DNA from: Escherichia coli | GTDB lineage: Bacteria; Pseudomonadota; Gammaproteobacteria; Enterobacterales; Enterobacteriaceae | Strand: one strand, 5' to 3' | DNA: 64,000 nucleotides | Assembly (NCBI RefSeq): GCF_003991155.1 | Contig: NZ_CP031293.1 | Shown here: positions 2,903 to 61,517 of the stretch, piece by piece | Position numbering within the stretch: the stretch's first letter is position 1 | How the letters are laid out: every line of letters begins with the position of its first letter | Notes under the pieces: generated by a model | Database searches by the model: none | What the model saw: only the letters and a program-made list of their open reading frames with translations | What the model was told of the DNA's origin: nothing | Translations under genes and position numbers: made by a program

Positions 2903-2917
2903 GTTGGAGTCATTACC

Positions 2918-2926
2918 GCCACTGCG
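2918..2926. repeat. IS1 target-site duplication, right copy (GCCACTGCG)
   Basis: Identical to 2141..2149. Confidence 0.85.
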
Positions 2927-3444
2927 GTACATCATCAATCACCTGTTCTTCGCGGTAATGACGTAAACGGTTAATGACATAAAAAGTAACCATCTCAACA
3001 AACTCTTCCAGCCCTGTTTCGCGGAAATTCAATGAAGAAATCACTGTTTCCACATAGGTGAGAAAAGCGTTATTGGTCCGGTATACCTGCGAAGCTACAA
3101 AGCAATAAGGCAACAACGGCAGGTAATGCTGCTCAAAAAAGCGTTTACTGATCCCAACGTTCAATATGCGCGTGGCACCAAACTCATAAAAACTTTGATG
3201 GTGCGAACCTAACGGAATAAAAACAAAATCGCCCCGTTCCAGTAACACGCGCTTACCGTTAATCTCCTGGAAATAACGCCCGGTTAATACCAGAGTAAAT
3301 TCATAATAGTCGTGCTGATGCAGTCCGCTGATACTCTCAGTTTTGTTATAGATAAACACATGGAAATTTTTGCCATTAAACAACTGCTGTTCTCGGGCGG
3401 TGGCAATTTCCGGCGCGTTAATCACTGGCTGCATCATCGACTCC

Positions 3445-35394: not shown

Positions 35395-36753
35395 TTAATT
35401 CACCTCAGAAATCTCTTCCAGCGACACCTTCCGCGTTTCGATGCCAAAAATGGAGAGAACCAGCGCACAGAGCACTAACATGACACCAAGCACCATAAAC
35501 ACCGTGATTGACCCATAATGCGTTAATAGTGCCGCAACGCCATAGGGCGTGAAGACTGCGACGATCCGTCCGACGGCATTAACGAAACCCGAACCACGCA
35601 GGCGTAAATGCGTTGGCCAAAGTTCCGGGATATAAACCGCCGACGCGAAGCACACATACATGTATAAAAAGAAGATCATCACCAGGCCATAGATTAAAAT
35701 CGCCCACTCTGTAGTCTGAATTGAATAGATATAGCCTAACACAGCAATAATAATAAGTAAGGCAGAGCCAAATAATCGACGAGGAAAATGATCAATAATT
35801 AATGCCGCAATAAATATCCCTACCGGAGCGCCAATCATAATAACAGCGGTCATTAATATTGATTTATCAACATCAATGCCGGAGTTAACAAATATGGTCG
35901 GTATCCATACGGTGATGGTATAAAGCGAAATGTTCATTGCAATTAAAACAGTAATCGCGACTAATGTACGTCGTAACATTTCCCCTTTAAACAGGAGCCA
36001 GAAGGTACCCTTGATTACCTTAACCTTGCTGTTGCTCTGGTTCAAAGTAAGCGGGGGTAAACGAATACTCTTCTCTCTTTCAATTTGCTGCTCTACTTCA
36101 CGAAGTTGGCTTTCTGCACCTGCGATTTGCCCTTTCCCCGCCAACCATCGAGGCGACTCAATAAAGTATTTACCTGAGAGAAACCAGGCTAACAGTATGC
36201 CAATACCACCCAGCAGAAACATTATCCGCCAACTAAAAAAAGCGATAACCACCACGCCTATCGCCGCAGACAACATGGGCGACCAGTTACCGACAAATGA
36301 GAGCCGCGCGGACCATTTTCCACGCACCGTCGCGGGGATAAACTCCGTAAATGAGGCATAGCCAACCATAATCAGCGCCCCCATTCCTGTTCCCATCAGG
36401 AAGCGAAAGAAGATGAGCCAGTACATATCAGGGACAAAAGCGGCCCCTGTTGCCGCAATACCGACGATGAGAAGATTTATGCGAAACGCCCTGCGCCGCC
36501 CAAAGTAGTCACCAATAAACCCACCGGTAAGAGAGCCGATGAAATAACCAAACATTAATGCCGAGGTAAAGGCGGCATTGAGGAGATTATTTGACCATCC
36601 ATTGCTTACCAGCTTTGCTAAAACAACATTGCCTGAATAACTCAAAAAACCCGTTAATAACAGACTAAAGCTTATAATACCAAATATACGATAATGAAAC
36701 CGGGCCAAAGGCAAGCGGTCCAGTCTTGCGCCAATTTGATCATATTGTTCCAT
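35395..36753 (-). CDS. ydjE: MFS transporter
   Basis: 452-aa, about 12 TM helices, sugar-porter-like GR[RK] motifs. Confidence 0.8.
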   Translation of the reverse strand: MEQYDQIGARLDRLPLARFHYRIFGIISFSLLLTGFLSYSGNVVLAKLVSNGWSNNLLNAAFTSALMFGYFIGSLTGGFIGDYFGRRRAFRINLLIVGIAATGAAFVPDMYWLIFFRFLMGTGMGALIMVGYASFTEFIPATVRGKWSARLSFVGNWSPMLSAAIGVVVIAFFSWRIMFLLGGIGILLAWFLSGKYFIESPRWLAGKGQIAGAESQLREVEQQIEREKSIRLPPLTLNQSNSKVKVIKGTFWLLFKGEMLRRTLVAITVLIAMNISLYTITVWIPTIFVNSGIDVDKSILMTAVIMIGAPVGIFIAALIIDHFPRRLFGSALLIIIAVLGYIYSIQTTEWAILIYGLVMIFFLYMYVCFASAVYIPELWPTHLRLRGSGFVNAVGRIVAVFTPYGVAALLTHYGSITVFMVLGVMLVLCALVLSIFGIETRKVSLEEISEVN

Positions 36754-36869
36754 TAGGTGCCTCGGATTTGCTAAAAAGGTAGCAATTGCGGCAAATTCAC
36801 TTGCCGCATCTTTATCATCATTTTATTTCCAGGCGCAGGAACAAATAATATTGACAACGTGTGCTTAAA

Positions 36870-37628
36870 TTACCACACCAGCTGGATATTATTGTCTTTG
36901 CAAAATGCTATCCACTCTGCACCCGGTGATTTATCAGTTATTATGTAATTAATATGACTAAAGTCAGCTAACTGGACAAAAGCTTTGCGATCAAACTTAG
37001 AGTGATCAACCAATAACGCAACTTCTGTCGCCTGACGGATCATTGTCTTTTTGATTTCAGCTTCCGCTTCGTTAGAGTCCAGCGCGCCGCTGTTAATATC
37101 AAGACCTTTACAACTCATTACCATGATATCGACATGGTAGCGGCTGATGATCTCTTTAGTAATTCTTCCTTGCAGGGAAAGTGTATTTTTGTTTAGTTCC
37201 CCCCCCGTTGAAACGACTTTAATTTCTGACTGAGCCAGAACATGAATCGCTTCCGCCGAGTTGGTTAGCAACGTCAGGTCACTACGGTCCTGTAACAATT
37301 TGAGCAATTCCATTACGGTACTACTGGAATCGGCTGCCATGGTGGTTTTATTGTCGATAAAGGGTAGTGCCTTGCGTGCAATAAGCTGCTTCTCTTCATA
37401 AAACGATGAAGCGCGCTTATAAAAATGGATATTCTCCGTCAACATCGCTGTATTTAAAACAGCACCACCATAGGTTCTGGTCAAAAAGCCTTCATCTTCC
37501 AGCTTCTCAAGATCGCGGCGAATGGTTTCTTCGGTTACCTGAAAAATCCCACTCAAATTTGAGACTGTCACCTTTTTATCGTTGGCAACCATTTGCTTAA
37601 TTGCCTGAATCCTGTCTTTTGCCGCCAC
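36870..37628 (-). CDS. ydjF: DeoR-family transcriptional regulator
   Basis: 252-aa ORF, N-terminal HTH plus DeoR C-terminal sugar-phosphate sensor domain. Confidence 0.8.
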   Translation of the reverse strand: MAAKDRIQAIKQMVANDKKVTVSNLSGIFQVTEETIRRDLEKLEDEGFLTRTYGGAVLNTAMLTENIHFYKRASSFYEEKQLIARKALPFIDNKTTMAADSSSTVMELLKLLQDRSDLTLLTNSAEAIHVLAQSEIKVVSTGGELNKNTLSLQGRITKEIISRYHVDIMVMSCKGLDINSGALDSNEAEAEIKKTMIRQATEVALLVDHSKFDRKAFVQLADFSHINYIITDKSPGAEWIAFCKDNNIQLVW

Positions 37629-37764
37629 GATTACACCCCTGTATCTTTTTACATCACATTAGCGCGATTATCGCATAACCGATGTTTACTTTCAAAATAA
37701 CCTGTTTGAATCACAGATTTTCATCACAGTTTTCACAGAAACAGAGGTGAATCGTGTTGAGTAT

Positions 37765-38745
37765 TTAACGCTCCAGGGCCTCTGCCATTTCCCTCATCAA
37801 TGTTGCGTCTGCATCCGATAAGTTGATATTCAATGCCGCGACATTTTCGCGTACCTGTTCCGGTGCAGTAGCCCCACTAAGAATGGAGATTAAATCACTC
37901 TGTTTTAATATCCACGCCAGTGCCAGAGTGGGAATTGTGCACTGATAACGAGCACAGAGTGGCTGCCACTGTTCAAGCATATCAATCACTTTCAGCATGT
38001 TTTCACGCTGGAACCAGACTTTATTTGCCCGAGCGCCACCCGGAACGTAATCACGAGTGATGGTACCGGTCAACAATCCCTGCTCTAGCGGGGAATAAAC
38101 CTGTACCACAATGCCATTATCACGACATAGCGGCAGCAGTTCGCTTTCCAATGCCCGGTCGAGGATACTGTATTTCGCCTGAATAATATCCAGTTCACCA
38201 TATTGCAGATACTCGCGGATATGGTCAGCATCGACGTTAGCAGCGCCTATAGCGCGAATTTTTCCTTCGGCCTTTAACTCATTGAGCACTGCGACAGTTT
38301 CAGCTATCGGCGTAAAAAATGGCGGCACCGACTGCCAGTGCGTCATGTAGATATCGATGTAATCAATACCCAGACGTTGCAAGCTGGCTTCTACCTCTTC
38401 GCGGATAGATTCCGGGGAAAGGTTTTTATACAACTGCCGATCGCCAACTTTGTTGAATAAACTCCCTTTTCGTTCCCAGACAATGCCGCATTTGGTTTCT
38501 ACTACAACCTGTTCACGGGGCAGTTTTTTTAACGCCTGACCGACGATAACTTCACTATTGCCAAAGTTATATCCTGGCGCAGTATCAATCAGATTAATGC
38601 CACAACGATGGGCTTCAAGAATCGTATCAATACATATTTGCCGATCGAGATCGCCATTCCATGCAGGACCGCCGCCAATGGCCCATGTCCCCAACCCCAT
38701 TCGCGAAAGCGTAATATCCGTTGTGCCTAAAGGTATCTTTTTCAT
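37765..38745 (-). CDS. ydjG: aldo-keto reductase
   Basis: 326-aa AKR-family ORF. Confidence 0.8.
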   Translation of the reverse strand: MKKIPLGTTDITLSRMGLGTWAIGGGPAWNGDLDRQICIDTILEAHRCGINLIDTAPGYNFGNSEVIVGQALKKLPREQVVVETKCGIVWERKGSLFNKVGDRQLYKNLSPESIREEVEASLQRLGIDYIDIYMTHWQSVPPFFTPIAETVAVLNELKAEGKIRAIGAANVDADHIREYLQYGELDIIQAKYSILDRALESELLPLCRDNGIVVQVYSPLEQGLLTGTITRDYVPGGARANKVWFQRENMLKVIDMLEQWQPLCARYQCTIPTLALAWILKQSDLISILSGATAPEQVRENVAALNINLSDADATLMREMAEALER

Positions 38746-38754
38746 TTGCCTTCA

Positions 38755-39702
38755 TTATCCTTCGTATTCTTCCAGCAATTGTTCGACCAGCTTTCTGTTT
38801 TTTACGCCGGTGGTGGCACCGACGCTTAGAACCGAGATAGCCGCCGTTGCATTGGCAAAGCGTGCGCATTCACGCAGATTTTTGCCTTCTAACAGTGCCG
38901 CAATAAAACCTGAAGCAAAGTTATCGCCCGCGCCAATGGTGTCGATGGCGGTTATTCCTGCGACCGCCGGCACCTTCATCGTCATGTCACCACGCTTGAT
39001 AAAGCAGCCGTCTTTACCCGTTTTAATCACCACCGTTTTTACGCCGCACGCAAGAAAGCAGTCAGCAATTTCATCCAGTGTCTCTTTCCCGGTGAGTAAT
39101 TTTGCCTCGGCAAAATTAGGAAACAGATAATCGACATAACTCAATGCTTCGCAAATATCATCCAGCGTTTCATTCAACCGCGGTTTGATCATATCGGCAC
39201 AGATAATCATCTGCCGGGCTTTAGCTTGCGTAAAAATTTCTGTTAGCGCTTTACCATCCAATAGTGGACTGTTGAAAATACTGGCCAGTGATAATAATTT
39301 CGCCTGGGAAAACCGCGCAAAATCAACATCGTCAATATTCAATTTCCACAGACTGCCGTTACGGTTTGTGACAAACGTCCGCTCGCCATCCTCCGTCACC
39401 AGTCCAACGTTAATAGAGGTATCTATGTTGACGTCCTGCTTCAGGCTTTGAATATCAATATTCTCTTTGCGGCAATGGTCGAGAATAAATTGCCCGGCGG
39501 CATCTTTACCAATACGACTCATTAATGCTGTGCGATGGCCCAGACGAGAAATAATTGTTGCTTCATTTATTGCATCACCCCCGGTGGTCATTGCGATTCT
39601 TTCAAGAGGATAAGAATCCACATCAAAGATATTTTTACTGACCGGTTGCAATGGAATATCAACAATAGCGGCACCTATACAAATAACGTCGAGATTATCC
39701 AT
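38755..39702 (-). CDS. ydjH: PfkB/ribokinase-family sugar kinase
   Basis: Start at MDNLDVICIGAAIVD; GAGDNF motif near C-terminus; 315 aa. Confidence 0.8.
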   Translation of the reverse strand: MDNLDVICIGAAIVDIPLQPVSKNIFDVDSYPLERIAMTTGGDAINEATIISRLGHRTALMSRIGKDAAGQFILDHCRKENIDIQSLKQDVNIDTSINVGLVTEDGERTFVTNRNGSLWKLNIDDVDFARFSQAKLLSLASIFNSPLLDGKALTEIFTQAKARQMIICADMIKPRLNETLDDICEALSYVDYLFPNFAEAKLLTGKETLDEIADCFLACGVKTVVIKTGKDGCFIKRGDMTMKVPAVAGITAIDTIGAGDNFASGFIAALLEGKNLRECARFANATAAISVLSVGATTGVKNRKLVEQLLEEYEG

Positions 39703-39706
39703 ATCA

Positions 39707-40543
39707 TTATTCCGCTTTGCCATCAGAACCGAACAGTTTAATTTTTTCCAATGCCCGTTCTTTTACAGCTTTACGTACTTCACGTTCTAAATGCAGGAAA
39801 GGCTGATCCTGGTTTTCTTTCACTGCTACCATTGCGGCCTGACAGAGCTCCGTATGAATGTTGATTTTCGCAATACCCAACGAAATTGCAGTTTTAATGT
39901 CGGCATCACTGATCCCCGATGCGCCGTGCAAAACCAGCGGAACAGAAACAGCATCGCGTACGCCTTTGACGACCTCAAAGTTCAATTGTGGCTCTGACGT
40001 ATAAACCCCATGCTGGTTGCCGATGGCGACAGCCAATGAGTCACAGCCCGTACGTTCAACAAATTCAGCCGCCTGGTCAGGATCGGTATAGTGATAGCCC
40101 GCCAGCGCTTCCTCATAAACGGTTTCATTACCGACATGCCCTAATTCCGCCTCTACCGGAATACCCAGCGGATGGAAGAAATCAACAGCCTCTTTGGTTA
40201 AACGAATATTTTCTTCGAAATCAAATGCGGAAGCATCACGCATTAATGAATTCATACCATGAGTCCAGGCGTTATGAATAATTTCCATACTCCGACCATG
40301 ATCCCAATGAGTTATTACCGGCACCGTTGCTTTTTTTGCCATTGATACCATCATGTGAGAGAAATCTTCAAATGAGGTGTTCCCGACAAAACCTGTACCA
40401 AAAGAAATAATAACCGGTGATTTCGCTTCTTCGGCTGCGTCGATAACGCCCATCAACATTTCTGCATTCCATACGTTAAAATGGGCAATTGCATAATGTT
40501 TATTTGTGGCATCGTTTTCCCAATATCTGATATCTGCGAGCAT
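39707..40543 (-). CDS. ydjI: class II (metal-dependent) aldolase, FBA/tagatose-bisphosphate aldolase-like
   Basis: 278-aa ORF. Confidence 0.8.
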   Translation of the reverse strand: MLADIRYWENDATNKHYAIAHFNVWNAEMLMGVIDAAEEAKSPVIISFGTGFVGNTSFEDFSHMMVSMAKKATVPVITHWDHGRSMEIIHNAWTHGMNSLMRDASAFDFEENIRLTKEAVDFFHPLGIPVEAELGHVGNETVYEEALAGYHYTDPDQAAEFVERTGCDSLAVAIGNQHGVYTSEPQLNFEVVKGVRDAVSVPLVLHGASGISDADIKTAISLGIAKINIHTELCQAAMVAVKENQDQPFLHLEREVRKAVKERALEKIKLFGSDGKAE

Positions 40544-40563
40544 ATTCTGTTCTCCCGTATTAA

Positions 40564-41607
40564 TTAATCGCTAATTTTAATAACGCCTTTAATAATGTCG
40601 CGTTTGTTGTTAACCGACTCTTCAAATGCCTGTTGTACATCCTGATAATCGTAAATATGTGTCACCATCGATTTCACATCTAATCGCCCTGAGGAAATAG
40701 CTTCAATCGTGACCGGATAACGATTGGCATAGCGGAATACTGTCTGGATAGTGACTTCGCGATTGATTTTGAGGAAATTGATTGCCGAATCGCCCGGTAC
40801 AGTACCAACAATCATAATTTTACCGCCGCGCATTACCAGATAAGGTGCCTGTTTAACGGTGACCGCAGAACCCGCTGTTTCGAAAACAATATCTGCGCCC
40901 ATTTCTTCGGTAAATTGCTGACAGCGTGCAATAGTGTCTTCTTTTGCGCCGTTAATAACCACTGTCGCGCCGAGCTGTTCCGCCATTGTCAGACGTTTTT
41001 CCAGCACATCAACGACGGCAATATCCGTAGCTCCCAGGCATTTGCACGCTTGCAACGTCATCAAACCAATACAACCCGCTCCCAGAATAATTATCTTCTT
41101 ACCCGGTTTAACATCTGCCAGCATCGCGGCATGCATCCCGACTGCGGCAGGCTCCACCAGCGCCCCTTCCATCGTGTCCATATTGTCGGGCAGTTTGTAA
41201 GTAAAGCTCTCCGGATGACACAGATAGTGCGTTAATGCGCCGCGGTAGTTAGGTTGTGTCGCCATAAAATCAACGTCCGGGCAGATGTTATATTTGCCTT
41301 CCAGACAGTAACGACAGTGACCGCAAGGAACGCCAGGTTCGATATTTACCCGATCCCCCGCTTTAAATTTGCGCACACGGCTTCCCACAGCCACAACCGT
41401 CCCGGCGCATTCATGACCCAGGCCAATTTCTTGATTTGGGTCTTTAGGCGGAATAAACGGGCCTGATTCGAAACCATGTACATCTGAACCACAAATACCG
41501 ACATATTCCACTTTAATCAAAACTTCATCTTCTTTAGGCACAGGTATTTCTGCTGAAATAATTTTCATTGTGCCCGGCACCTGCAATATTGCTTTTGAAT
41601 TTTTCAT
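40564..41607 (-). CDS. ydjJ: Zn-dependent alcohol/polyol dehydrogenase (MDR family)
   Basis: 347-aa ORF; GHECAG zinc motif and GAGCIG Rossmann motif. Confidence 0.8.
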   Translation of the reverse strand: MKNSKAILQVPGTMKIISAEIPVPKEDEVLIKVEYVGICGSDVHGFESGPFIPPKDPNQEIGLGHECAGTVVAVGSRVRKFKAGDRVNIEPGVPCGHCRYCLEGKYNICPDVDFMATQPNYRGALTHYLCHPESFTYKLPDNMDTMEGALVEPAAVGMHAAMLADVKPGKKIIILGAGCIGLMTLQACKCLGATDIAVVDVLEKRLTMAEQLGATVVINGAKEDTIARCQQFTEEMGADIVFETAGSAVTVKQAPYLVMRGGKIMIVGTVPGDSAINFLKINREVTIQTVFRYANRYPVTIEAISSGRLDVKSMVTHIYDYQDVQQAFEESVNNKRDIIKGVIKISD

Positions 41608-41623
41608 TTTGAATCCACCAGTA

Positions 41624-43003
41624 TTATTTATTGACTACTGCATCAATACTTAAACTTTCAACGGAGACACCTTTCGTTTCAATTCCAATGGTGGTGATAG
41701 CAATTGCGACAATAATTGAAACAGCCCCCAGAAGAATAAAGACTCCCGTTACGCCATAACTACTGAGCAGCACTGCAACGGCATAAGGTGCGGCAATACC
41801 ACTGATTCGCCCTACCGCATTCGCCAGACCGGAGCCACGTAATTTGGCCTCTGTCGGCCAGATTTCAGGGACATACACTGCCGAGGCATAGCAAACGTAC
41901 ATATAGACGAAAGTAATCAGGAAGAAACCAATCAGCGTTATGAGCAACATACTGGTTTGCAGTGAATAGATATATCCGAGCACCGCAATCAGGATTAATA
42001 GCCCCACACCCATTGTTTTACGCGGAATTTTATCCATCACCAGCATGGCAATAAATATACCAAATGGCGCACCAAACATACTCATGGTATTTAAAACAAT
42101 CGAGTCTTTTAAATTAATCCCCTGGGTCATGAATATTGTTGGCAACCAGTTAATTAGTGTGTACTGCACAACGTTCATGGCAATCAGCACACAAGAACCT
42201 AATATCACGCGTTTCAGTAATACTCCTGTCAGTAAGGCTGAATACGGCACCGCTTGTGGCGCTTTACCGTCATCAGCAATAACCACGGGCGGCAAAGGTT
42301 TTCCCGTCTGGCGTATGACGCCTTCTTCTATACTCCGCATGACTTTCTCGGCTTCCTGATACCGTCCGCGCGATTCCAGCCAGCGCGGGGATTCAGGAAA
42401 GTAGCGCCAGGCCAGCGCCGTAGCGATAAGCGACAATATTGCAGGGATAAGCAGTTGTACTCGCCAGTTCCACTCTGCACTAATCAGCGGCGTGAGTCCC
42501 ATCGCAATCAATGAACAGAGCGGATATGACCAGTTGCCAATAAAAGAAACCCGACTGGACCACGTTCCGCGATTTCTACCGGGCATATATTCGGTGAAAC
42601 CAGCAAACAGCGTCACCAGTAAAGCTCCCAGCCCAACGCCCATCACAAAACGGCAGGCAATAAGGAAATCCATATTCGGTGAAAAAGCACCGACCACCAT
42701 CGAGGCAATATGAATGGCCTCATAGAGGATGAACGCATTTCTGCGACCGGTTTTGTCACCGATGATGCCGCCAACCAGCGCACCGAGAAACATTCCGGCG
42801 GTCGTGATTGCTGAGAATGTGGCAGTGGTGGAATTATCTGTCCAGCCCAACGCTTTCAGCTGCGCGAGGATCAAGCCACCAACGGCATTACTCCAGCAGA
42901 CAAGCAAGCCAAACGCGACGATAGCAAACATTGACGAATGCCAGCGGCAATCCGGTAAGCGATCCAGCCGAGCACCACAATGCGGTTTTGTTATCTGTTC
43001 CAT
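41624..43003 (-). CDS. ydjK: MFS transporter
   Basis: 459-aa polytopic membrane protein, paralogous to ydjE. Confidence 0.8.
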   Translation of the reverse strand: MEQITKPHCGARLDRLPDCRWHSSMFAIVAFGLLVCWSNAVGGLILAQLKALGWTDNSTTATFSAITTAGMFLGALVGGIIGDKTGRRNAFILYEAIHIASMVVGAFSPNMDFLIACRFVMGVGLGALLVTLFAGFTEYMPGRNRGTWSSRVSFIGNWSYPLCSLIAMGLTPLISAEWNWRVQLLIPAILSLIATALAWRYFPESPRWLESRGRYQEAEKVMRSIEEGVIRQTGKPLPPVVIADDGKAPQAVPYSALLTGVLLKRVILGSCVLIAMNVVQYTLINWLPTIFMTQGINLKDSIVLNTMSMFGAPFGIFIAMLVMDKIPRKTMGVGLLILIAVLGYIYSLQTSMLLITLIGFFLITFVYMYVCYASAVYVPEIWPTEAKLRGSGLANAVGRISGIAAPYAVAVLLSSYGVTGVFILLGAVSIIVAIAITTIGIETKGVSVESLSIDAVVNK

Positions 43004-43029
43004 GCGATAACGCTCCTTCAGGAGAGTAG

Positions 43030-44106
43030 TTATTCATCAAAGTCGTAAGTCATGATCACTTTGATTGCGGTTTTATCGACCATCGCATCAAACCCTTCGC
43101 GCCATTGCGACAGGCCGATACGATGCGTGATCATCGGTTTGACTTTGATAGCGCCGCTGGCTAATAGCCTGATAGCGTTACGCCATGAGGTGGAGTCATA
43201 GGCCATATGCCCAATGATGCTTTTGTTCCAGGCGGTAATGTCATTAATCGAGAAATCAAGAGGTTTGAAGCCCATTCCAACGCGTACCACTTCCCCATTC
43301 GGGCGGAGCATTTCGATGGCTTGTTTCAATGCGATATTGGCACCGGAGCATTCAATCACCAGTCCCAGATTGTCTTTGCCACAAATTTGCTGGCAGCGCG
43401 CCACCACATCTTCGGTAGAACCATTTACTACTGCCGTCGCACCCAGTTCTTTTGCAACCGGGAAGCGGACCGCCACATCTTCTTGTAGACCAACGACGAC
43501 GATATTTACCGCCCCCATAATCCGCGCCATTTGTACGGAGAACAGCCCGAGTGGGCCAGTACCGATGACGACCACATCCTGACCAGGGAGGAATTTCGAT
43601 TGCTGCGCTATGGATTTGTAGGCATTACAGATAGGGTCAAGTACGGCTGCGTCCTCATAATCAACACCATCAGGGATTTCCCACAACGCATGACGATGAA
43701 TTTTGAGAATTTCACCAGGAACCAGACAATATTTGGAAAAACCACCGCCCCAGGTATTGTTATCCAGACCAAGGTTTACTTTTTCTGTACAACACAGAAA
43801 ATCACCTTGTTCACAGGCCGGACAAACGCCGCAGACGTGACCGCTGTTATCTGACACGACGCGTTGCCCCACTTTCCAGTCTTTGACTTTTTCACCAACC
43901 TGCGCAATACAACCTGCGAACTCATGGCCGCGGATAGAGTTAAACTCATCAGAACCGCTATCGACATTGTAGTGCTTCATGTCTGCGCCGCAGATTGCCG
44001 CGGCTTTAATTTCAATCACGACATCTTCCGGGCCACAAATGGGTTGTGGCACATCGATCATCTTGTAGCCGCCAAAGGCTTTGCCAAACCGAGCCAGTGC
44101 TTTCAT
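43030..44106 (-). CDS. ydjL: Zn-dependent alcohol/polyol dehydrogenase (MDR family)
   Basis: 358-aa ORF; GHEFAG zinc motif. Confidence 0.8.
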   Translation of the reverse strand: MKALARFGKAFGGYKMIDVPQPICGPEDVVIEIKAAAICGADMKHYNVDSGSDEFNSIRGHEFAGCIAQVGEKVKDWKVGQRVVSDNSGHVCGVCPACEQGDFLCCTEKVNLGLDNNTWGGGFSKYCLVPGEILKIHRHALWEIPDGVDYEDAAVLDPICNAYKSIAQQSKFLPGQDVVVIGTGPLGLFSVQMARIMGAVNIVVVGLQEDVAVRFPVAKELGATAVVNGSTEDVVARCQQICGKDNLGLVIECSGANIALKQAIEMLRPNGEVVRVGMGFKPLDFSINDITAWNKSIIGHMAYDSTSWRNAIRLLASGAIKVKPMITHRIGLSQWREGFDAMVDKTAIKVIMTYDFDE

Positions 44107-51719: not shown

Positions 51720-53015
<1,296 letters not shown>

Positions 53016-53018
53016 AAC

Positions 53019-53050
53019 TGTCAGCCGGGTCATTATCGCCTGGCTGATTT
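53019..53050 (+). terminator. terminator after yeaH (CAGCCGG...CCTGGCTG hairpin plus ATTTTT)
   Basis: Hairpin plus T-run. Confidence 0.6.
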
Positions 53051-53161
53051 TTAGCTCACTGTAAATTATCTCATTTATTACATACATTAGCTTACAATCG
53101 CTTTAAATATGACAGCATAACCTTTACACAATTTAGTTCCAGAAAACAATCATTCGGAAAA

Positions 53162-54637
53162 ATGATTCGGTCAACACGTATTTCCCTGGGGTTATTCTTT
53201 AATTATTTTTTATCGTCAACGAAAATTGATCCTGGTCAAAACTATATATCTCTGCCATCAATAAAATCCAGCACTCACATTGCTCTCCTTTTTATGGCTT
53301 CTATGGGTACACAAAAATTAAAAGCTCAAGGCTTTTTAGTTTTCAGCTTATTGCTGACGTTAATTTTATTTTGCATTACTACTTTATATAACGAAAACAC
53401 GAATGTAAAACTCATCCCACAGATGAATTACCTGATGGTTGTTGTGGCTTTGTTTTTCCTTAACGCCGTCATTTTTCTTTTCATGTTAATGAAGTATTTC
53501 ACTAACAAACAAATTTTACCAACACTCATTTTAAGCCTTGCATTTTTAAGTGGCCTTATCTATTTAGTTGAAACCATTGTAATTATCCATAAACCAATCA
53601 ACGGCAGTACACTGATCCAGACAAAGTCGAATGATGTTTCTATTTTCTATATTTTCCGCCAACTCAGTTTCATTTGTTTAACCTCGCTGGCGCTCTTTTG
53701 TTATGGGAAAGACAACATCCTTGACAACAATAAGAAAAAAACTGGCATTCTGTTGCTGGCGCTGATTCCTTTTTTAGTTTTTCCCCTTCTGGCACACAAT
53801 CTGAGTAGTTATAACGCTGACTATTCTTTGTATGTCGTCGATTACTGTCCGGACAACCATACTGCGACCTGGGGAATCAACTATACAAAAATATTGGTTT
53901 GTTTGTGGGCATTTTTACTGTTCTTTATTATCATGCGTACACGATTAGCCAGCGAACTATGGCCGTTAATAGCATTATTATGTCTGGCATCGCTATGCTG
54001 CAACTTACTTCTACTGACTCTGGATGAGTATAATTACACCATCTGGTATATCAGTCGCGGGATTGAAGTTTCCAGTAAACTGTTTGTTGTGTCTTTTCTG
54101 ATTTATAACATTTTTCAGGAACTGCAACTCTCCAGCAAACTGGCAGTTCATGATGTGCTGACCAATATTTATAATCGGCGCTACTTTTTCAACAGCGTAG
54201 AGTCATTATTGTCGCGACCTGTTGTTAAGGACTTTTGTGTCATGCTGGTTGATATTAATCAGTTCAAACGCATCAATGCCCAATGGGGACATCGTGTGGG
54301 TGATAAAGTGCTGGTATCAATTGTCGATATTATCCAGCAAAGCATCCGCCCCGATGATATTTTAGCGCGACTGGAGGGTGAGGTGTTTGGCTTGCTATTT
54401 ACCGAACTCAATAGTGCCCAGGCAAAAATCATTGCGGAACGTATGCGTAAAAATGTCGAACTCCTGACCGGCTTTAGTAACAGATATGATGTTCCTGAAC
54501 AAATGACCATCAGTATTGGCACGGTTTTTTCAACGGGTGACACGCATAATATCTCGCTTGTCATGACGGAAGCAGATAAAGCCTTACGCGAAGCGAAAAG
54601 CGAGGGGGGCAACAAAGTGATTATTCATCATATTTAA
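53162..54637 (+). CDS. yeaI: membrane-anchored GGDEF-domain protein with degenerate active-site motif
   Basis: 491-aa ORF; N-terminal multi-TM region; GGDEF domain with RLEGEVF in place of RxGGDEF. Confidence 0.85.
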   Translation: MIRSTRISLGLFFNYFLSSTKIDPGQNYISLPSIKSSTHIALLFMASMGTQKLKAQGFLVFSLLLTLILFCITTLYNENTNVKLIPQMNYLMVVVALFFLNAVIFLFMLMKYFTNKQILPTLILSLAFLSGLIYLVETIVIIHKPINGSTLIQTKSNDVSIFYIFRQLSFICLTSLALFCYGKDNILDNNKKKTGILLLALIPFLVFPLLAHNLSSYNADYSLYVVDYCPDNHTATWGINYTKILVCLWAFLLFFIIMRTRLASELWPLIALLCLASLCCNLLLLTLDEYNYTIWYISRGIEVSSKLFVVSFLIYNIFQELQLSSKLAVHDVLTNIYNRRYFFNSVESLLSRPVVKDFCVMLVDINQFKRINAQWGHRVGDKVLVSIVDIIQQSIRPDDILARLEGEVFGLLFTELNSAQAKIIAERMRKNVELLTGFSNRYDVPEQMTISIGTVFSTGDTHNISLVMTEADKALREAKSEGGNKVIIHHI

Positions 54638-54817
54638 GTGCAAAAATATTCAGAGCCATGCTTTTTGCGTGGCTTTTGCATACAATTTATTACTATTACC
54701 CCTAAATTTCCCCTCCCCAGCGGCGCAGAGATGAGTATAATTAGCGCCCCTGTGCCAGGCCGCAATCGAACTTTATCTGGTTTTCTCGTTTCACTAACCG
54801 AAGGAGTGCCATTTATC

Positions 54818-56308
54818 ATGAAATTGCACCATAGAATGCTCCGGCATTTTATCGCCGCAAGTGTCATTGTGCTGACATCTTCCTTCCTTATTTTTGAACT
54901 TGTCGCCAGTGACAGAGCAATGAGTGCCTATCTGCGCTATATCGTGCAGAGAGCAGACTCCTCCTTTCTTTATGATAAGTATCAGAATCAGAGTATTGCC
55001 GCGCATGTGATGCGCGCTCTCGCTGCTGAGCAGTCGGAAGTGTCGCCAGAACAGCGGCGAGCCATCTGCGAGGCTTTTGAGTCTGCCAATAATACCCATG
55101 GCTTAAACCTGACTGCCCATAAATACCCTGGCTTACGCGGCACACTACAAACCGCATCCACTGACTGCGACACAATTGTGGAAGCTGCTGCACTATTACC
55201 CGCTTTTGATCAGGCAGTGGAAGGCAACCGCCACCAGGATGATTACGGTTCAGGTCTTGGGATGGCCGAAGAGAAATTTCACTATTATCTCGATCTCAAT
55301 GACCGCTATGTCTATTTTTATGAGCCGGTTAATGTTGAGTACTTTGCGATGAATAACTGGTCCTTCCTGCAGTCAGGAAGTATTGGCATCGATCGCAAAG
55401 ATATTGAAAAGGTATTTACCGGGCGTACCGTATTATCGAGCATTTACCAGGATCAGCGTACTAAACAGAACGTGATGAGTTTGCTGACGCCGGTATATGT
55501 CGCAGGGCAGCTAAAAGGGATTGTGCTGCTGGATATTAACAAAAACAATCTGCGGAATATCTTTTACACTCATGACCGCCCTCTCCTCTGGCGTTTTCTC
55601 AATGTCACGCTAACTGATACAGATTCGGGGCGCGACATTATCATCAACCAGAGCGAAGATAATCTGTTCCAGTATGTCAGTTACGTCCATGACTTACCGG
55701 GCGGCATTCGTGTCTCGTTATCCATTGATATTCTTTACTTTATCACGTCTTCGTGGAAAAGCGTTCTGTTCTGGATTTTGACGGCGTTAATTTTGCTGAA
55801 TATGGTGCGGATGCACTTCCGTTTATACCAAAATGTGTCGCGAGAAAATATTAGTGATGCGATGACTGGACTGTATAATCGCAAAATTTTAACCCCTGAA
55901 CTGGAGCAGCGGTTGCAGAAACTGGTGCAATCCGGTTCTTCGGTGATGTTTATTGCAATTGACATGGACAAGTTAAAGCAAATAAATGACACCCTTGGTC
56001 ATCAGGAGGGGGATTTAGCGATTACGTTATTAGCTCAGGCGATTAAACAATCGATTCGTAAAAGTGATTATGCCATCCGACTCGGTGGCGATGAATTCTG
56101 CATCATTCTTGTCGATTCGACGCCGCAAATTGCAGCACAACTGCCTGAACGTATCGAAAAACGTCTACAACATATCGCGCCGCAGAAAGAGATCGGCTTC
56201 TCTTCCGGTATTTACGCGATGAAAGAAAACGATACGTTACATGATGCGTATAAAGCTTCCGATGAGCGTTTATATGTCAATAAGCAGAACAAAAACAGCC
56301 GTTCATGA
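54818..56308 (+). CDS. yeaJ: diguanylate cyclase (periplasmic sensor domain plus GGDEF)
   Basis: Start at MKLHHRMLRHFIAASVIVL; canonical RLGGDEF; 496 aa. Confidence 0.85.
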   Translation: MKLHHRMLRHFIAASVIVLTSSFLIFELVASDRAMSAYLRYIVQRADSSFLYDKYQNQSIAAHVMRALAAEQSEVSPEQRRAICEAFESANNTHGLNLTAHKYPGLRGTLQTASTDCDTIVEAAALLPAFDQAVEGNRHQDDYGSGLGMAEEKFHYYLDLNDRYVYFYEPVNVEYFAMNNWSFLQSGSIGIDRKDIEKVFTGRTVLSSIYQDQRTKQNVMSLLTPVYVAGQLKGIVLLDINKNNLRNIFYTHDRPLLWRFLNVTLTDTDSGRDIIINQSEDNLFQYVSYVHDLPGGIRVSLSIDILYFITSSWKSVLFWILTALILLNMVRMHFRLYQNVSRENISDAMTGLYNRKILTPELEQRLQKLVQSGSSVMFIAIDMDKLKQINDTLGHQEGDLAITLLAQAIKQSIRKSDYAIRLGGDEFCIILVDSTPQIAAQLPERIEKRLQHIAPQKEIGFSSGIYAMKENDTLHDAYKASDERLYVNKQNKNSRS

Positions 56309-56350
56309 TAACCTTCTGTGGTTGTTTGCTTGTAATCTCAGGAGCATGAA

Positions 56351-56854
56351 ATGACTGAAATGGCTAAAGGAAGCGTGACGCATCAGCGGTTAATCGCTTT
56401 ATTATCGCAAGAAGGTGCTGACTTCCGCGTCGTTACCCATGAAGCGGTAGGTAAATGTGAAGCGGTGTCAGAAATTCGTGGCACCGCTTTAGGCCAGGGG
56501 GCTAAGGCACTGGTATGTAAAGTCAAAGGCAATGGCGTAAATCAACATGTTCTGGCGATCCTCGCTGCCGATCAACAGGCCGATCTGAGCCAACTCGCCA
56601 GCCATATAGGCGGATTACGCGCTTCGTTGGCCAGTCCGGCGGAAGTCGATGAACTCACAGGCTGTGTCTTCGGCGCGATCCCCCCTTTCAGCTTCCATCC
56701 AAAACTCAAACTGGTTGCCGACCCCCTACTCTTCGAACGATTTGATGAAATCGCCTTCAATGCAGGCATGCTGGATAAATCCGTTATTTTGAAAACCGCG
56801 GATTATTTGCGCATTGCGCAACCAGAACTGGTCAATTTCCGCCGCACTGCGTAA
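56351..56854 (+). CDS. yeaK: YbaK/ProX-type aminoacyl-tRNA deacylase-domain protein
   Basis: 167-aa ORF. Confidence 0.8.
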   Translation: MTEMAKGSVTHQRLIALLSQEGADFRVVTHEAVGKCEAVSEIRGTALGQGAKALVCKVKGNGVNQHVLAILAADQQADLSQLASHIGGLRASLASPAEVDELTGCVFGAIPPFSFHPKLKLVADPLLFERFDEIAFNAGMLDKSVILKTADYLRIAQPELVNFRRTA

Positions 56855-56959
56855 CTAGCCTGTCCGTTCGATAAGAAGAACGGACAAAACCAGCACAACA
56901 GCAATGGCAAAAAACGATGACGTGATAATCAGTGTCTCGACGAACATTTGATCGTTCAT
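56855..56959 (-). CDS. yoaI: small hydrophobic protein (34 aa) [34 protein letters not shown]
   Basis: Not in the ORF track (under 60 aa); single predicted TM helix; matches the small protein I remember as yoaI. Confidence 0.6.
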
Positions 56960-57128
56960 AGTATGCCCCCGGGAGATAGCTGTTTTCACGTTATTGTTAG
57001 CGTGCGCAAATGGCAGTTTGATGACAGTTCGCCTGATTTTTTATGCAAAAAACGTAAAGATTTTCTACTTCCTTCCTGCAGCAAGCGTAAAGTAAGCAGG
57101 CTTATTATTTTTTGGCAAGGAAACCACG

Positions 57129-57575
57129 ATGTTTGATGTCACTTTGCTGATCCTGCTCGGGTTAGCTGCGCTGGGCTTTATCAGTCATAACACCACTGTC
57201 GCCGTTTCAATTCTGGTGTTGATTATTGTCCGCGTCACACCGTTAAGCACCTTTTTTCCGTGGATTGAAAAACAGGGGCTAAGTATCGGGATAATCATTC
57301 TGACGATTGGTGTTATGGCCCCCATCGCCAGCGGGACGCTACCGCCCTCAACCCTGATTCACTCGTTTCTGAACTGGAAATCGCTGGTGGCAATTGCAGT
57401 CGGCGTTATTGTCTCCTGGCTGGGAGGGCGCGGCGTGACGTTAATGGGCAGCCAGCCGCAACTGGTCGCCGGGTTGCTGGTGGGCACTGTTTTAGGCGTG
57501 GCGCTGTTTCGCGGCGTACCGGTTGGCCCGCTTATTGCCGCGGGTCTGGTTTCGCTGATTGTGGGGAAACAGTAG
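57129..57575 (+). CDS. yeaL: UPF0756/DUF441 inner membrane protein
   Basis: 148-aa hydrophobic ORF. Confidence 0.8.
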
Positions 57576-58353
57576 TTAATCCCGCAATATATCGGCCTGG
57601 CGTTTGCCCCAGGCCTTTCTTAAACATAGTAATAAAGGCCGTTGTTGAATCATACCCCAGCGTATGAGCAACTTTCTGTACAGTATCGCCTTTCACTAAT
57701 CCCTGAAGCGCCATAATCAGCTGTAACTGCTGACGCCACTGGCGAAAACTCAAGCCCGTCTCTTTCACTATCAGCCGGGCAAGATTGCGTTCACTCATCG
57801 CAAAAAAGCCAGCCCATTGCCCCAATGAGCCCCACTCGACGGGCTCTTTCGCCATCATCTCCACCATCGCGCGGATTTTAGGATGAGAAGAAACGGGTAG
57901 GTGCAGCTGTTGTTGTGGCTGCTGAGGGAGTTCATCAAACAGGACCTGAATTAATCTGCGGGTCATCGGCTCAGCACGCTGAGTCGTCGTCCTGTTTGCC
58001 AGGGTTAAAATTAATTCCCGGCATAAGGGCGATATTTTCAATGTGCAACAGGTTGTCGGCATTGTCACTGCGCTGGGTTCGATAAACAGAAAACAGAGTT
58101 CAGCGTTAGCTGTCACTTGATTGCTATGTTCCACCCCTCCCGGTATCCAAACCGCATATTGTGGCGGCACCATCCACAAAGCATTTTCCACCGTACAGGT
58201 AATTGCACCATGTAGCGCCAGTATCAGCTGTCCTTTGCGGTGCTGATGTACAGGACTGGTTAACTCATCCGTTCCGGCGTGAATACAAAATGCGACCGCG
58301 GCTTCATGGTGTCGGTCGGGTTCATAGCCATTGAGATTCAACCTGTGCATCAT
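57532..58353 (-). CDS. yeaM: AraC-family transcriptional regulator (cupin plus HTH)
   Basis: 273-aa ORF; 3' end overlaps yeaL 3' end. Confidence 0.8.
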
Positions 58354-58449
58354 TTTGTCCGAATTTAGCGATAATTTGTCATTTTAGCTTGATTCAACAT
58401 AACAATAAAAACGGTAAGGTACAGCCTCGTTTGTAACAATGAGAAGCAT

Positions 58450-59631
58450 ATGACCTGTTCAACTTCATTAAGCGGCAAAAACAGGATTGTCCTTATCGCT
58501 GGTATTCTGATGATTGCCACAACATTACGCGTCACCTTTACCGGCGCAGCACCGTTACTGGATACGATTCGTTCCGCTTACTCGCTGACGACGGCGCAAA
58601 CCGGCTTATTGACCACCCTGCCATTATTAGCCTTTGCGCTAATCTCACCGCTGGCCGCCCCGGTGGCGCGACGTTTTGGTATGGAACGTAGCCTGTTTGC
58701 CGCGTTACTTTTGATCTGTGCAGGTATCGCAATTCGCTCTCTCCCTTCGCCTTACTTATTATTTGGCGGTACAGCGGTCATTGGCGGTGGGATTGCATTA
58801 GGTAATGTCTTACTGCCAGGATTAATTAAACGCGATTTCCCTCATTCCGTCGCCAGACTTACCGGCGCATATTCCCTGACAATGGGAGCTGCAGCGGCAC
58901 TGGGATCGGCGATGGTAGTGCCGCTGGCTTTGAACGGTTTTGGCTGGCAAGGCGCGTTGCTCATGCTGATGTCTTTTCCTCTGCTGGCTCTTTTTTTATG
59001 GCTGCCACAGTGGCGAAGTCAACAACATGCAAATTTGAGTACCTCACGCGCCTTACATACTCGGGGTATCTGGCGTTCGCCGCTTGCCTGGCAGGTAACA
59101 TTGTTTCTTGGGATCAACTCACTCGTCTATTACGTGATTATTGGCTGGCTTCCGGCGATCCTCATCAGTCACGGCTATAGCGAAGCACAGGCGGGTTCAC
59201 TGCATGGTTTGCTGCAACTAGCCACAGCAGCTCCCGGTTTGCTGATCCCACTTTTCTTACATCATGTGAAAGATCAGCGTGGTATTGCAGCGTTCGTTGC
59301 CTTGATGTGCGCAGTGGGCGCGGTTGGGCTCTGCTTTATGCCAGCGCACGCGATCACCTGGACTCTGCTTTTCGGTTTTGGTTCCGGCGCAACAATGATA
59401 CTGGGGTTGACGTTCATTGGTCTTCGGGCAAGTTCTGCGCATCAGGCGGCGGCACTCTCGGGGATGGCACAATCCGTCGGGTATTTGCTGGCAGCCTGTG
59501 GGCCGCCGCTGATGGGTAAAATACACGATGCTAACGGTGACTGGTCCATACCACTGATGGGTGTTGCCATACTTTCACTACTGATGGCGATTTTCGGACT
59601 TTGCGCCGGGAGAGACAAAGAAATTCGCTAA
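58450..59631 (+). CDS. yeaN: MFS transporter (cyanate-transporter-like family)
   Basis: 393-aa polytopic ORF. Confidence 0.8.
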   Translation: MTCSTSLSGKNRIVLIAGILMIATTLRVTFTGAAPLLDTIRSAYSLTTAQTGLLTTLPLLAFALISPLAAPVARRFGMERSLFAALLLICAGIAIRSLPSPYLLFGGTAVIGGGIALGNVLLPGLIKRDFPHSVARLTGAYSLTMGAAAALGSAMVVPLALNGFGWQGALLMLMSFPLLALFLWLPQWRSQQHANLSTSRALHTRGIWRSPLAWQVTLFLGINSLVYYVIIGWLPAILISHGYSEAQAGSLHGLLQLATAAPGLLIPLFLHHVKDQRGIAAFVALMCAVGAVGLCFMPAHAITWTLLFGFGSGATMILGLTFIGLRASSAHQAAALSGMAQSVGYLLAACGPPLMGKIHDANGDWSIPLMGVAILSLLMAIFGLCAGRDKEIR

Positions 59632-60491: not shown

Positions 60492-61517
60492 GTGTCAGAT
60501 CAGATTATCGCCCGCGTCTCGCAATCCCTTGCCAAAGAACAGTCACTGGAAAGTCTGGTTCGACAGCTTCTGGAGATGCTGGAAATGGTCACTGATATGG
60601 AATCAACCTACCTGACCAAAGTGGATGTCGAAGCGCGCCTGCAGCATATAATGTTTGCCCGTAACAGCCAGAAAATGCACATCCCGGAGAATTTTACCGT
60701 CTCGTGGGATTACTCGTTATGCAAACGCGCCATTGATGAAAACTGCTTTTTCAGCGATGAAGTCCCCGACCGTTGGGGCGACTGTATTGCGGCACGCAAT
60801 CTTGGCATCACCACATTTCTGAGCACGCCAATTCACTTACCGGATGGATCATTCTATGGCACGCTTTGCGCCGCCAGCAGTGAGAAGCGCCAGTGGAGTG
60901 AACGCGCGGAACAGGTTTTGCAGTTATTCGCCGGACTGATTGCACAATATATTCAAAAAGAGGCACTGGTTGAACAGCTGCGCGAAGCTAATGCTGCGCT
61001 GATTGCGCAATCGTATACCGACTCGTTAACCGGGCTACCGAATCGGCGGGCGATTTTTGAAAATCTGACGACGCTGTTTTCTCTCGCCCGGCATCTTAAC
61101 CATAAGATAATGATCGCGTTTATCGACCTGGATAACTTCAAATTAATCAACGATCGTTTTGGTCATAATAGTGGCGATCTGTTTCTCATTCAGGTTGGCG
61201 AGCGCCTTAATACGCTCCAGCAAAATGGCGAAGTTATTGGTCGTCTCGGCGGTGATGAGTTTTTGGTTGTTTCACTGAACAACGAGAATGCGGATATTTC
61301 GTCGCTGCGAGAACGTATTCAACAACAAATACGCGGAGAATATCACTTAGCTGATGTTGATTTGTATTATCCTGGTGCCAGTCTTGGCATAGTAGAAGTC
61401 GATCCTGAAACGACCGATGCAGACAGTGCCCTGCATGCTGCCGATATCGCGATGTATCAGGAGAAAAAACACAAACAGAAAACACCTTTTGTCGCGCATC
61501 CAGCGCTACATTCCTGA
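60492..61517 (+). CDS. yeaP: diguanylate cyclase (GAF-like N-terminal domain plus GGDEF)
   Basis: GTG start (MSDQIIARVSQ...), canonical RLGGDEF, 341 aa. Confidence 0.85.
   Translation: MSDQIIARVSQSLAKEQSLESLVRQLLEMLEMVTDMESTYLTKVDVEARLQHIMFARNSQKMHIPENFTVSWDYSLCKRAIDENCFFSDEVPDRWGDCIAARNLGITTFLSTPIHLPDGSFYGTLCAASSEKRQWSERAEQVLQLFAGLIAQYIQKEALVEQLREANAALIAQSYTDSLTGLPNRRAIFENLTTLFSLARHLNHKIMIAFIDLDNFKLINDRFGHNSGDLFLIQVGERLNTLQQNGEVIGRLGGDEFLVVSLNNENADISSLRERIQQQIRGEYHLADVDLYYPGASLGIVEVDPETTDADSALHAADIAMYQEKKHKQKTPFVAHPALHS

Follow-up and report, generated by a model that had tools for sequence, protein, structure and literature searches.

CdgI (YeaI) of Escherichia coli, a GGDEF protein with a degenerate active site and an intact c-di-GMP-binding site, and its canonical neighbour DgcJ: an AT-rich gene most likely of old insertion

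Several bacterial GGDEF proteins, among them PopA of Caulobacter, PelD of Pseudomonas aeruginosa and SgmT of Myxococcus, are degenerate receptors, in which the active site (A-site) is dead and the RxxD I-site binds cyclic di-GMP (c-di-GMP). Here we present an analysis of a 64,000-nucleotide stretch of Escherichia coli DNA (contig NZ_CP031293.1; hereafter the window), in which positions 53162-56308 carry two genes for GGDEF proteins, cdgI (yeaI) and dgcJ (yeaJ). Our reading, to which we assign a probability of about 85%, is that this block is the E. coli chromosomal pair of those names, that CdgI is a dead cyclase that binds c-di-GMP, and that cdgI is an old insertion. CdgI has in common with PopA, PelD and SgmT the dead A-site and the retained RxxD motif. 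Its N-terminal module is MASE4, whereas theirs are receiver, GAF or kinase domains, and there is no orthology between them.

The same gene has been described in E. coli K-12 (b1785), where it has the EGEVF and RPDD motifs, the neighbours and the 491-residue annotation that it has in the window. Sarenko et al. (2017; PMC5635695) reported that the A-site of CdgI is degenerate and its I-site intact, that its purified His6-tagged GGDEF domain binds c-di-GMP (their Fig. S4B), and that this domain makes strong heteromeric contacts with several other GGDEF domains. In their hands the protein was below detection in K-12 under standard conditions, toxic when overproduced and subject to repression by CsrA, and they proposed that CdgI inhibits other cyclases in a manner modulated by c-di-GMP. 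CdgI is regarded as catalytically non-functional in that study and by Cimdins-Ahne (2023; PMC10459773), where the related proteins DgcX and DgcT are described as functional cyclases. Furthermore, Table 1 of Shavkunov et al. (2013; PMC3661553) lists a 304-bp promoter island inside yeaI that was H-NS-bound in all the chromatin immunoprecipitation (ChIP) studies compiled there, and yeaI is flagged as foreign by GIST, by Nakamura et al. and by Lawrence and Ochman. For the second gene of the pair, the closest studied relative is YeaJ (STM1283) of Salmonella, whose GAPES1 domain senses autoinducer-2 (AI-2) and contains two key residues, Y210 and D239, reported to be essential for binding it (PMC9637222). 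Published work thus covers the gene cdgI, the dead active site of its product, the binding of c-di-GMP, the occupancy by H-NS and the prediction of a foreign origin, and the official gene name already states the function. What may be new is a shorter cdgI gene model and the placement of a change from enzyme to receptor on the Escherichia stem, with canonical orthologs in Citrobacter.

The window is a piece of the E. coli chromosome with the gene order katE'-chb-ast-ydj-gapA-yeaG-yeaH-cdgI-dgcJ-yeaK...dgcP-leuE, and several complete E. coli genomes match positions 52900-56400 at 100% identity. This region was detected in 5424 of 5426 complete E. coli genomes, with at least 80% of the query region covered in 5388 of the 5426. 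Compared with MG1655, the cdgI of the window has 28 nucleotide and nine amino-acid differences, which amounts to strain-level polymorphism only. The protein fits the MASE4-GGDEF subfamily (DgcT/DgcX/CdgI), with an N-terminal MASE4 followed by GGDEF; its GGDEF domain matches cyclases in the PDB with E-values down to 4e-22, and its hydropathy peaks run from residue 52 on. The coordinates of these and other features are collected in Table 1. A preliminary description of this DNA, made from the letters, had counted two GGDEF genes in the block, which is right for cdgI and dgcJ; with dgcP (yeaP, GAF plus GGDEF), which lies 4 kb downstream at 60492-61517, there are three GGDEF genes within 8.4 kb.

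From I-site to A-site, CdgI reads R396-P-D-D-I-L-A-R-L-E405-G-E-V-F409, with the RxxD motif at the canonical five-residue distance from the A-site. The motif RLEGEVF, already picked out in the preliminary description, was found at residues 403-409 (54368-54388), and HMMER pairs RLEGEVFG with RYGGEEFG of solved cyclases. The first glycine and the second acidic residue of GG(D/E)EF are replaced (E405, V408), and an intact A-site of this form is found in DgcJ and not in CdgI. Four further substitutions, D366N, D373A, Y476R and R483G, accompany the degenerate A-site, at positions where Citrobacter orthologs with GGEEF have retained D, D, Y and R; the tyrosine of ALYEAK, conserved in GGEEF-bearing homologs, is arginine in CdgI. 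Of the conserved catalytic-core positions, D364, K369, N372, D381 and K479 are retained. In what we take to be PleD numbering, the changes correspond to G368 to E, E371 to V, D329 to N, D336 to A and R446 to G, and the residues kept are presumably the equivalents of D327, K332, N335, D344, E370 and K442. In an alignment of 20 homologs, R396, D399, R403, G406 and F409 are invariant. CdgI is predicted to be an inner-membrane MASE4-GGDEF protein with a dead cyclase active site which, because its allosteric RxxD I-site is intact, would bind c-di-GMP rather than make it. The preliminary suggestion that YeaI is catalytically inactive and may serve as a c-di-GMP receptor or scaffold is thereby supported, both by the states of the two sites and by the binding experiments of Sarenko et al. 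(PMC5635695).

The comparison with the E. coli paralog DgcT (YcdT) is instructive. CdgI and DgcT are 37% identical, have the MASE4-plus-GGDEF architecture and the RPDD I-site in common, and are encoded by equally AT-rich genes. DgcT, however, has an intact GGEEF together with canonical residues at the other positions changed in CdgI, both of which CdgI has lost. The loci differ also, since dgcT adjoins pgaABCD. When expressed or de-silenced, CdgI would act as a membrane-anchored receptor or adaptor that responds to c-di-GMP and contacts the GGDEF domains both of other cyclases and of degenerate GGDEF proteins, a receptor or inhibitor mechanism that we infer after Sarenko et al. Such contacts may modulate local c-di-GMP signalling for biofilm formation and motility, and the MASE4 domain may receive a membrane or periplasmic input.

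A number of observations weigh against a CdgI that binds c-di-GMP without making it. Work by Sanchez-Torres et al. in 2011 is said, in papers citing it, to have found that yeaI raises cellular c-di-GMP. Of the citing papers, one states that yeaI increases c-di-GMP in BW25113 (PMC6824119) and another lists YeaI among the "verified" cyclases (PMC3484386). In addition, Spurbeck et al. (2012) found that the cyclase WspR rescued the biofilm defect of a CFT073 yeaI deletion in no-salt lysogeny broth, though not in glycerol medium. Some authors, citing Sanchez-Torres et al., still call YeaI an active cyclase. The published knockout phenotypes of cdgI conflict, biofilm being up in K-12 and down in CFT073. 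As to the I-site, the CdgI ortholog of Escherichia sp. MOD1-EC7003 (locus L030, 5050-6525), which stands outside the 20-homolog alignment, reads HPDD and might be a natural variant without c-di-GMP binding.

Together with the catalytic-core residues that CdgI has kept, the c-di-GMP reports and the WspR rescue would suit a CdgI that is a working, weak or conditional diguanylate cyclase, whose phenotypes arise through c-di-GMP synthesis. We judge this improbable. The glycine and the acidic residue of the A-site and the residues aligned with PleD D329, D336 and R446 are lost; across Escherichia species the I-site is fixed but the A-site varies freely, as fits a site that is no longer catalytic; WspR did not complement in glycerol medium; and both Sarenko et al. 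(2017) and Cimdins-Ahne (2023) regard the protein as non-functional in catalysis. Moreover, a changed c-di-GMP pool in a mutant can be indirect, through contacts of CdgI with real cyclases. We return, then, to CdgI as a c-di-GMP binder that has lost its cyclase activity.

When this loss took place can be read from the homologs. Syntenic Citrobacter orthologs are fully canonical in the 20-sequence alignment, with GGEEF, DIDHFKRINDRWGH, ALYEAK and GRN, and the first glycine of the A-site is lost in every Escherichia-type sequence. Within the latter, positions 405, 407 and 408 are variable. EGEVF is read in E. coli, E. fergusonii, E. whittamii and sp. E1V33, EGEEF in sp. MOD1-EC5427, a representative of the cluster that includes E. 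marmotae, EGDVF and DGEVF in divergent sequences that include strain E69, EGNVF in E. albertii and EGKRF in a metagenomic relative. This pattern is that of an abandoned catalytic site beside a conserved ligand-binding site. Since the syntenic Citrobacter orthologs still read GGEEF, catalysis was probably lost on the Escherichia stem, with a change from G to E common to the Escherichia species sampled, after which purifying selection has maintained cdgI. The ratio of non-synonymous to synonymous substitution rates (dN/dS, by Nei-Gojobori) for cdgI codons 45-491 is 0.065-0.113, in both the MASE4 and the GGDEF parts, over five Escherichia comparisons with dS up to 1.1. The neighbouring genes have lower ratios, 0.02-0.04 for dgcJ and about 0.012 for yeaH. 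We conclude from these values that cdgI is constrained and not a pseudogene, though more relaxed than its neighbours.

One might still suppose cdgI to be a functionless, decaying relic that is turning into a pseudogene. In favour of this, no expression of the protein is detectable in K-12, its active site has degenerated, assemblies of E. coli and Shigella sonnei contain many truncated or "partial" forms of CdgI, and a spontaneous cdgI deletion had only a minor phenotype. We consider this supposition very improbable and reject it on the dN/dS values, which are low across both domains in five Escherichia species pairs. In addition, the frame of codons 45-491 is intact in every Escherichia species examined, and both the near-universal coverage of the region in E. 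coli genomes and the invariant I-site of the 20-sequence alignment speak for a maintained gene.

The comparison with orthologs also bears on where cdgI begins. The annotated 491-residue start is probably 44 codons too long on comparative grounds, and the true start would be the ATG at 53294 (M45) or at 53303 (M48). Orthologs outside E. coli proper are 445-448 residues long and start at the residue aligned to M45 or M48, and residue 1 of DgcT aligns to CdgI residue 48. Within the 44 codons before it, E. albertii has one in-frame stop and strain E69 has two, and in E. whittamii the first codon is TTG. The dN/dS of this extension is 0.35-1.7, from small counts, and the E. albertii comparison for the extension and spacer is unreliable, a nucleotide identity of about 0.48-0.56 suggesting poor ungapped alignment. 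Between the window and MG1655, all four nucleotide differences in these 132 nt are non-synonymous, as against five of 24 in the rest of cdgI, so that four of the nine amino-acid differences between the two strains fall within the extension. Hydropathy gave no hydrophobic segment before residue 52. On inspection for Shine-Dalgarno sequences, the annotated ATG is preceded by a weak GGAA, whereas M45 and M48 have none. Taken jointly, a CdgI start at M45 or M48 and a loss of cyclase activity on the Escherichia stem seem to us somewhat better than an even bet.

The AT-richness of yeaI and its long A/T runs, seen by eye in the preliminary description, were borne out when the windowed guanine-plus-cytosine (GC) content was computed. 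The GC content of cdgI is 0.388 against 0.497 for the window, which puts it below all others among the 56 scored genes of 100 amino acids (aa) or more (z -3.46). The 500-bp GC minimum of the whole 64 kb, 0.318, falls at 53051-53550, and runs of at least four A or T reach 31 per kb in 53001-54000, the highest density in the window, against 11.4 +/- 4.3 per kb elsewhere. The AT-rich block really covers about 52700-54400 and takes in the yeaH end, the spacer after it and the part of cdgI that encodes the membrane domain. The 5' part of yeaJ, which had been described as belonging to it, lies outside, for what was taken as that part is mostly the 180-bp spacer between the genes, and the true first 500 nt of dgcJ, from 54818, have an average GC of 0.49. 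The dgcJ gene as a whole is only mildly low, at 0.455 (z -1.6), with a GC at third codon positions (GC3) of 0.499 (z -0.6). The idea that dgcJ shares the foreign, AT-rich character of cdgI was ruled out by this GC3 and by the presence of dgcJ in all genera sampled. As a separate observation, the ydjE-ydjL sugar-catabolism cluster (35395-44106) forms a second, broader low-GC region of the window, with gene GC of 0.43-0.50 and GC3 down to 0.41, similar to the GC3 of cdgI.

Part of the cdgI signal is amino-acid composition. The residues F, Y, M, I, N and K make up 34% of CdgI and G, A, R and P 15%, and much of the GC deficit sits at codon positions 1 and 2 (z -3.3 and -2.5) because the protein is rich in the former group. 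The third position, with a GC3 of 0.431, departs less (z -1.85). Low GC also recurs in relatives: the orthologs of E. albertii and Citrobacter are at 0.374-0.383, despite a dS of more than 1 between E. coli and E. albertii, and the paralog dgcT of MG1655 (locus L033, 3877-5235, beside pgaA and a copy of IS3, an insertion sequence [IS]) has a GC of 0.386 and a GC3 of 0.408. Low GC thus behaves as a maintained trait of the MASE4-GGDEF family and not merely as an un-ameliorated scar.

Evidence for insertion comes from the junction between yeaH and dgcJ, which is a variable slot in Enterobacteriaceae. The order yeaG-yeaH-[MASE4-GGDEF]-dgcJ-yeaK is found in E. coli, E. albertii, E. fergusonii, E. 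whittamii, further Escherichia spp., a metagenomic relative and genomes like that of Citrobacter sp. Awk 4; every sampled species of Escherichia and some Citrobacter carry cdgI, which has a patchy distribution. The slot is empty, with a spacer of 141-146 bp, in C. amalonaticus, C. sedlakii and Kluyvera genomosp. 1. In S. enterica arizonae it consists of 658 bp of non-coding, AT-rich DNA. Unrelated genes occupy it in other taxa: Klebsiella has a 385-aa open reading frame (ORF), two Kluyvera species have one ORF for a LysR-type regulator and one further ORF, K. intermedia has an ORF resembling an ATP-binding cassette (ABC) transporter in a gap with a GC of 0.365, and C. koseri has a 256-aa ORF. 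Searches of the 658-bp S. enterica arizonae spacer with tblastn and blastn for a cdgI remnant found nothing past the end of yeaH. Because the slot has different cargo or none in other Enterobacteriaceae, cdgI most likely entered by an old insertion, before the radiation of Escherichia; this is the simplest reading, and its direction is the part that we infer.

The acquisition would be old, not recent: cdgI is core in E. coli, it occupies the same slot in Escherichia and some Citrobacter, its divergence from the Citrobacter orthologs (57-62% protein identity) is similar to that of dgcJ (63-67%), and no mobility genes are annotated beside it. With the region carried by 5424 of 5426 genomes, neither recent acquisition nor variable presence with mobility signatures was found within E. 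coli. The horizontal origin proposed earlier for the block therefore stands only in part. For cdgI it agrees with the published compositional calls and with the variability of the slot across genera, as an old event; it fails for dgcJ, a gene that Salmonella, Citrobacter, Klebsiella and Kluyvera all have in place.

Three considerations count against the insertion itself. The GC3 of cdgI is only moderately low, its AT-richness being largely an amino-acid composition common to the whole MASE4-GGDEF family; no mobility genes, integrase, IS, tRNA or flanking repeats were seen beside cdgI in the locus annotations, which were read without a dedicated repeat search; and, besides horizontal origin, ancestral presence followed by repeated loss would also suit the distribution. 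These are also the grounds for an account in which AT-richness is intrinsic to MASE4-GGDEF genes and uninformative on transfer, and cdgI is old, vertical and repeatedly lost elsewhere. To this account belong the larger deficits at codon positions 1 and 2, the FYMINK-rich protein, the equally low GC of dgcT at another locus and of the divergent orthologs, and a gene that is core in E. coli with unremarkable borders. We hold it to be unlikely. Other membrane-protein genes of the window are far less AT-rich (nimT 0.53, chbC 0.49), and a GC3 of 0.333 in the first 87 annotated cdgI codons, with a GC of 0.342 in the yeaH-cdgI spacer, goes beyond what amino-acid composition explains. Furthermore, the slot is bare in several genera and filled with other cargo in others, no cdgI remnant lies in the Salmonella arizonae spacer, and cdgI was called foreign by published compositional methods (PMC3661553). 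An old insertion of cdgI remains our preferred explanation.

A terminator-like hairpin just after the yeaH stop suggests that cdgI has its own promoter. SrsR (YgfI) binds the yeaH-cdgI spacer and activates cdgI (PMC9181523), and RstA binds the yeaI promoter in O157:H7 (PMC6824119). The published promoter island, one of the 78 of Shavkunov, Ozoline et al., coincides with the measured GC minimum and the A/T-run maximum when it is mapped assuming U00096.2 coordinates with an offset of about +1978, taken from the MG1655 v3 annotation and the SrsR peak in the yeaH-cdgI spacer. In contrast to the promoter islands as described, a simple sigma-70 scan of the window between 49 and 58 kb gave no excess of promoter-like sites, with 11 sites in the 9 kb against 14.3 +/- 4.3 expected, six of the 11 lying within 52.8-54.2 kb. 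The 10-bp high-affinity H-NS motif TCGATAAATT, allowing at most two mismatches, occurs about once per kb in the cdgI region, the same as elsewhere, and in the literature we found no report of derepression of cdgI specifically in hns mutants. The possibility of H-NS silencing raised in the preliminary description nevertheless gains support from the H-NS-bound island of the ChIP studies (PMC3661553) and from the undetectable CdgI of standard cultures (PMC5635695). In our proposed scheme, cdgI would be a very AT-rich gene with an H-NS-bound promoter island, essentially silent in laboratory culture, with CsrA repression reported in addition. If the shorter gene model is true, its first 132 annotated nucleotides would be part of an AT-rich, H-NS-covered leader abutting the published promoter island. 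An Rfam scan of 52800-57200 with E-values up to 1 returned no match to an RNA family.

DgcJ presents the opposite case at its catalytic site. It scores 747 bits against the NCBIfam DgcJ equivalog NF040885 (cutoff 500), its motif string is RKSD-YAIRL-GGDEF, and its catalytic-core positions read DMDKLKQINDTLGHQEGD, the canonical DxD...K..ND...H...D. The canonical RLGGDEF noted in the preliminary description was confirmed, and the I-site and the two AI-2-binding residues, Y210 (55445-55447) and D239 (55532-55534), are present as well. As both of these residues are kept, DgcJ is predicted to respond to AI-2. It is 68% identical over all 496 residues to the protein of S. enterica arizonae, and the two genes have the same place beside yeaK, an intact GGDEF and RxxD, and conserved Y210 and D239; unlike in E. 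coli, dgcJ of Salmonella follows yeaH after the 658-bp AT-rich spacer, without cdgI. DgcJ would therefore be an ancestral, catalytically competent and independent cyclase with a GAPES1 sensor that is probably AI-2-responsive. A start of yeaJ at 54638 was rejected, since it is merely that of the longest GTG-initiated ORF, and the annotated start is at 54818. As a side observation, a 429-bp contig assigned to Terrisporobacter mayombei, a member of the Firmicutes (NZ_JAHZMP010000305.1), encodes a protein 99% identical to residues 147-289 of E. coli DgcJ and is almost certainly E. coli contamination.

Table 1. Positions of the features of the cdgI-dgcJ block in the window
Feature	Position	Strand	Evidence or source
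yeaH-cdgI spacer, GC 0.342; promoter-like site 53123-53150; SrsR peak in genomic systematic evolution of ligands by exponential enrichment (gSELEX); RstA target "PyeaI" in electrophoretic mobility shift assay (EMSA)	53016-53161	+	PMC9181523, PMC6824119
Terminator-like hairpin just after the yeaH stop, 11-bp stem then T run	53020-53048	+	
cdgI (yeaI, b1785), 491 aa as annotated by RefSeq, MASE4 plus degenerate GGDEF, GC 0.388	53162-54637	+	annotation, Pfam
44-codon N-terminal extension of annotated cdgI, probably untranslated	53162-53293	+	neutral evolution, in-frame stops, absent from orthologs and DgcT
Approximate equivalent of the published H-NS-bound promoter island (1868534_304), coinciding with the window GC minimum	~53289-53592	.	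PMC3661553
MASE4 integral-membrane sensor domain of CdgI (aa 88-319)	53423-54118	+	PF17158, E 1.7e-48
GGDEF domain of CdgI (aa 328-485)	54143-54616	+	PF00990, E 9e-45
I-site RPDD of CdgI (R396-D399), five residues upstream of the A-site	54347-54358	+	20-homolog alignment
Degenerate A-site EGEVF of CdgI (E405-F409), replacing GG(D/E)EF	54374-54388	+	HMMER alignment, 20-homolog alignment
cdgI-dgcJ spacer, 180 bp, GC 0.45; promoter-like site 54790-54819	54638-54817	+	
dgcJ (yeaJ, b1786), 496 aa, GC 0.455	54818-56308	+	RefSeq annotation
GAPES1 periplasmic sensor of DgcJ (aa 31-304)	54908-55729	+	PF17155, E 7e-151
Canonical GGDEF domain of DgcJ (aa 346-494)	55853-56299	+	PF00990, E 3.4e-40
I-site RKSD of DgcJ	56057-56068	+	
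Intact A-site GGDEF of DgcJ	56084-56098	+	

Two observations concern other parts of the window. The chbR gene is interrupted by an IS1 of 768 bp at 2150-2917, with terminal inverted repeats and a 167-aa DDE_Tnp_IS1 ORF at 2399-2902, which separates the cupin/AraC-binding part of chbR (2913-3437) from its helix-turn-helix part (1818-2120). It is flanked by a 9-bp target-site duplication, GCCACTGCG, at 2141-2149 and 2918-2926 (777-bp spacing), and it is absent from 2016C-3878, otherwise the closest genome. Insertions of IS elements near chbR have been linked to activation of the cryptic chb operon. The nimR-nimT genes, at 57532-59631 in the window, are absent between yeaL and yeaO in E. albertii (loci L008/L009, 9834-10725) and in a relative (locus L035).

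For the biology of this family, the "foreign" label of cdgI most likely stems from an ancient insertion at a variable slot and not from a recent transfer. A corrected cdgI gene model would affect constructs, fusions and topology predictions. Finally, if the loss of catalysis on the Escherichia stem is true, CdgI of Escherichia and Citrobacter would form a natural before-and-after pair for studying how an enzyme changes into a second-messenger receptor.

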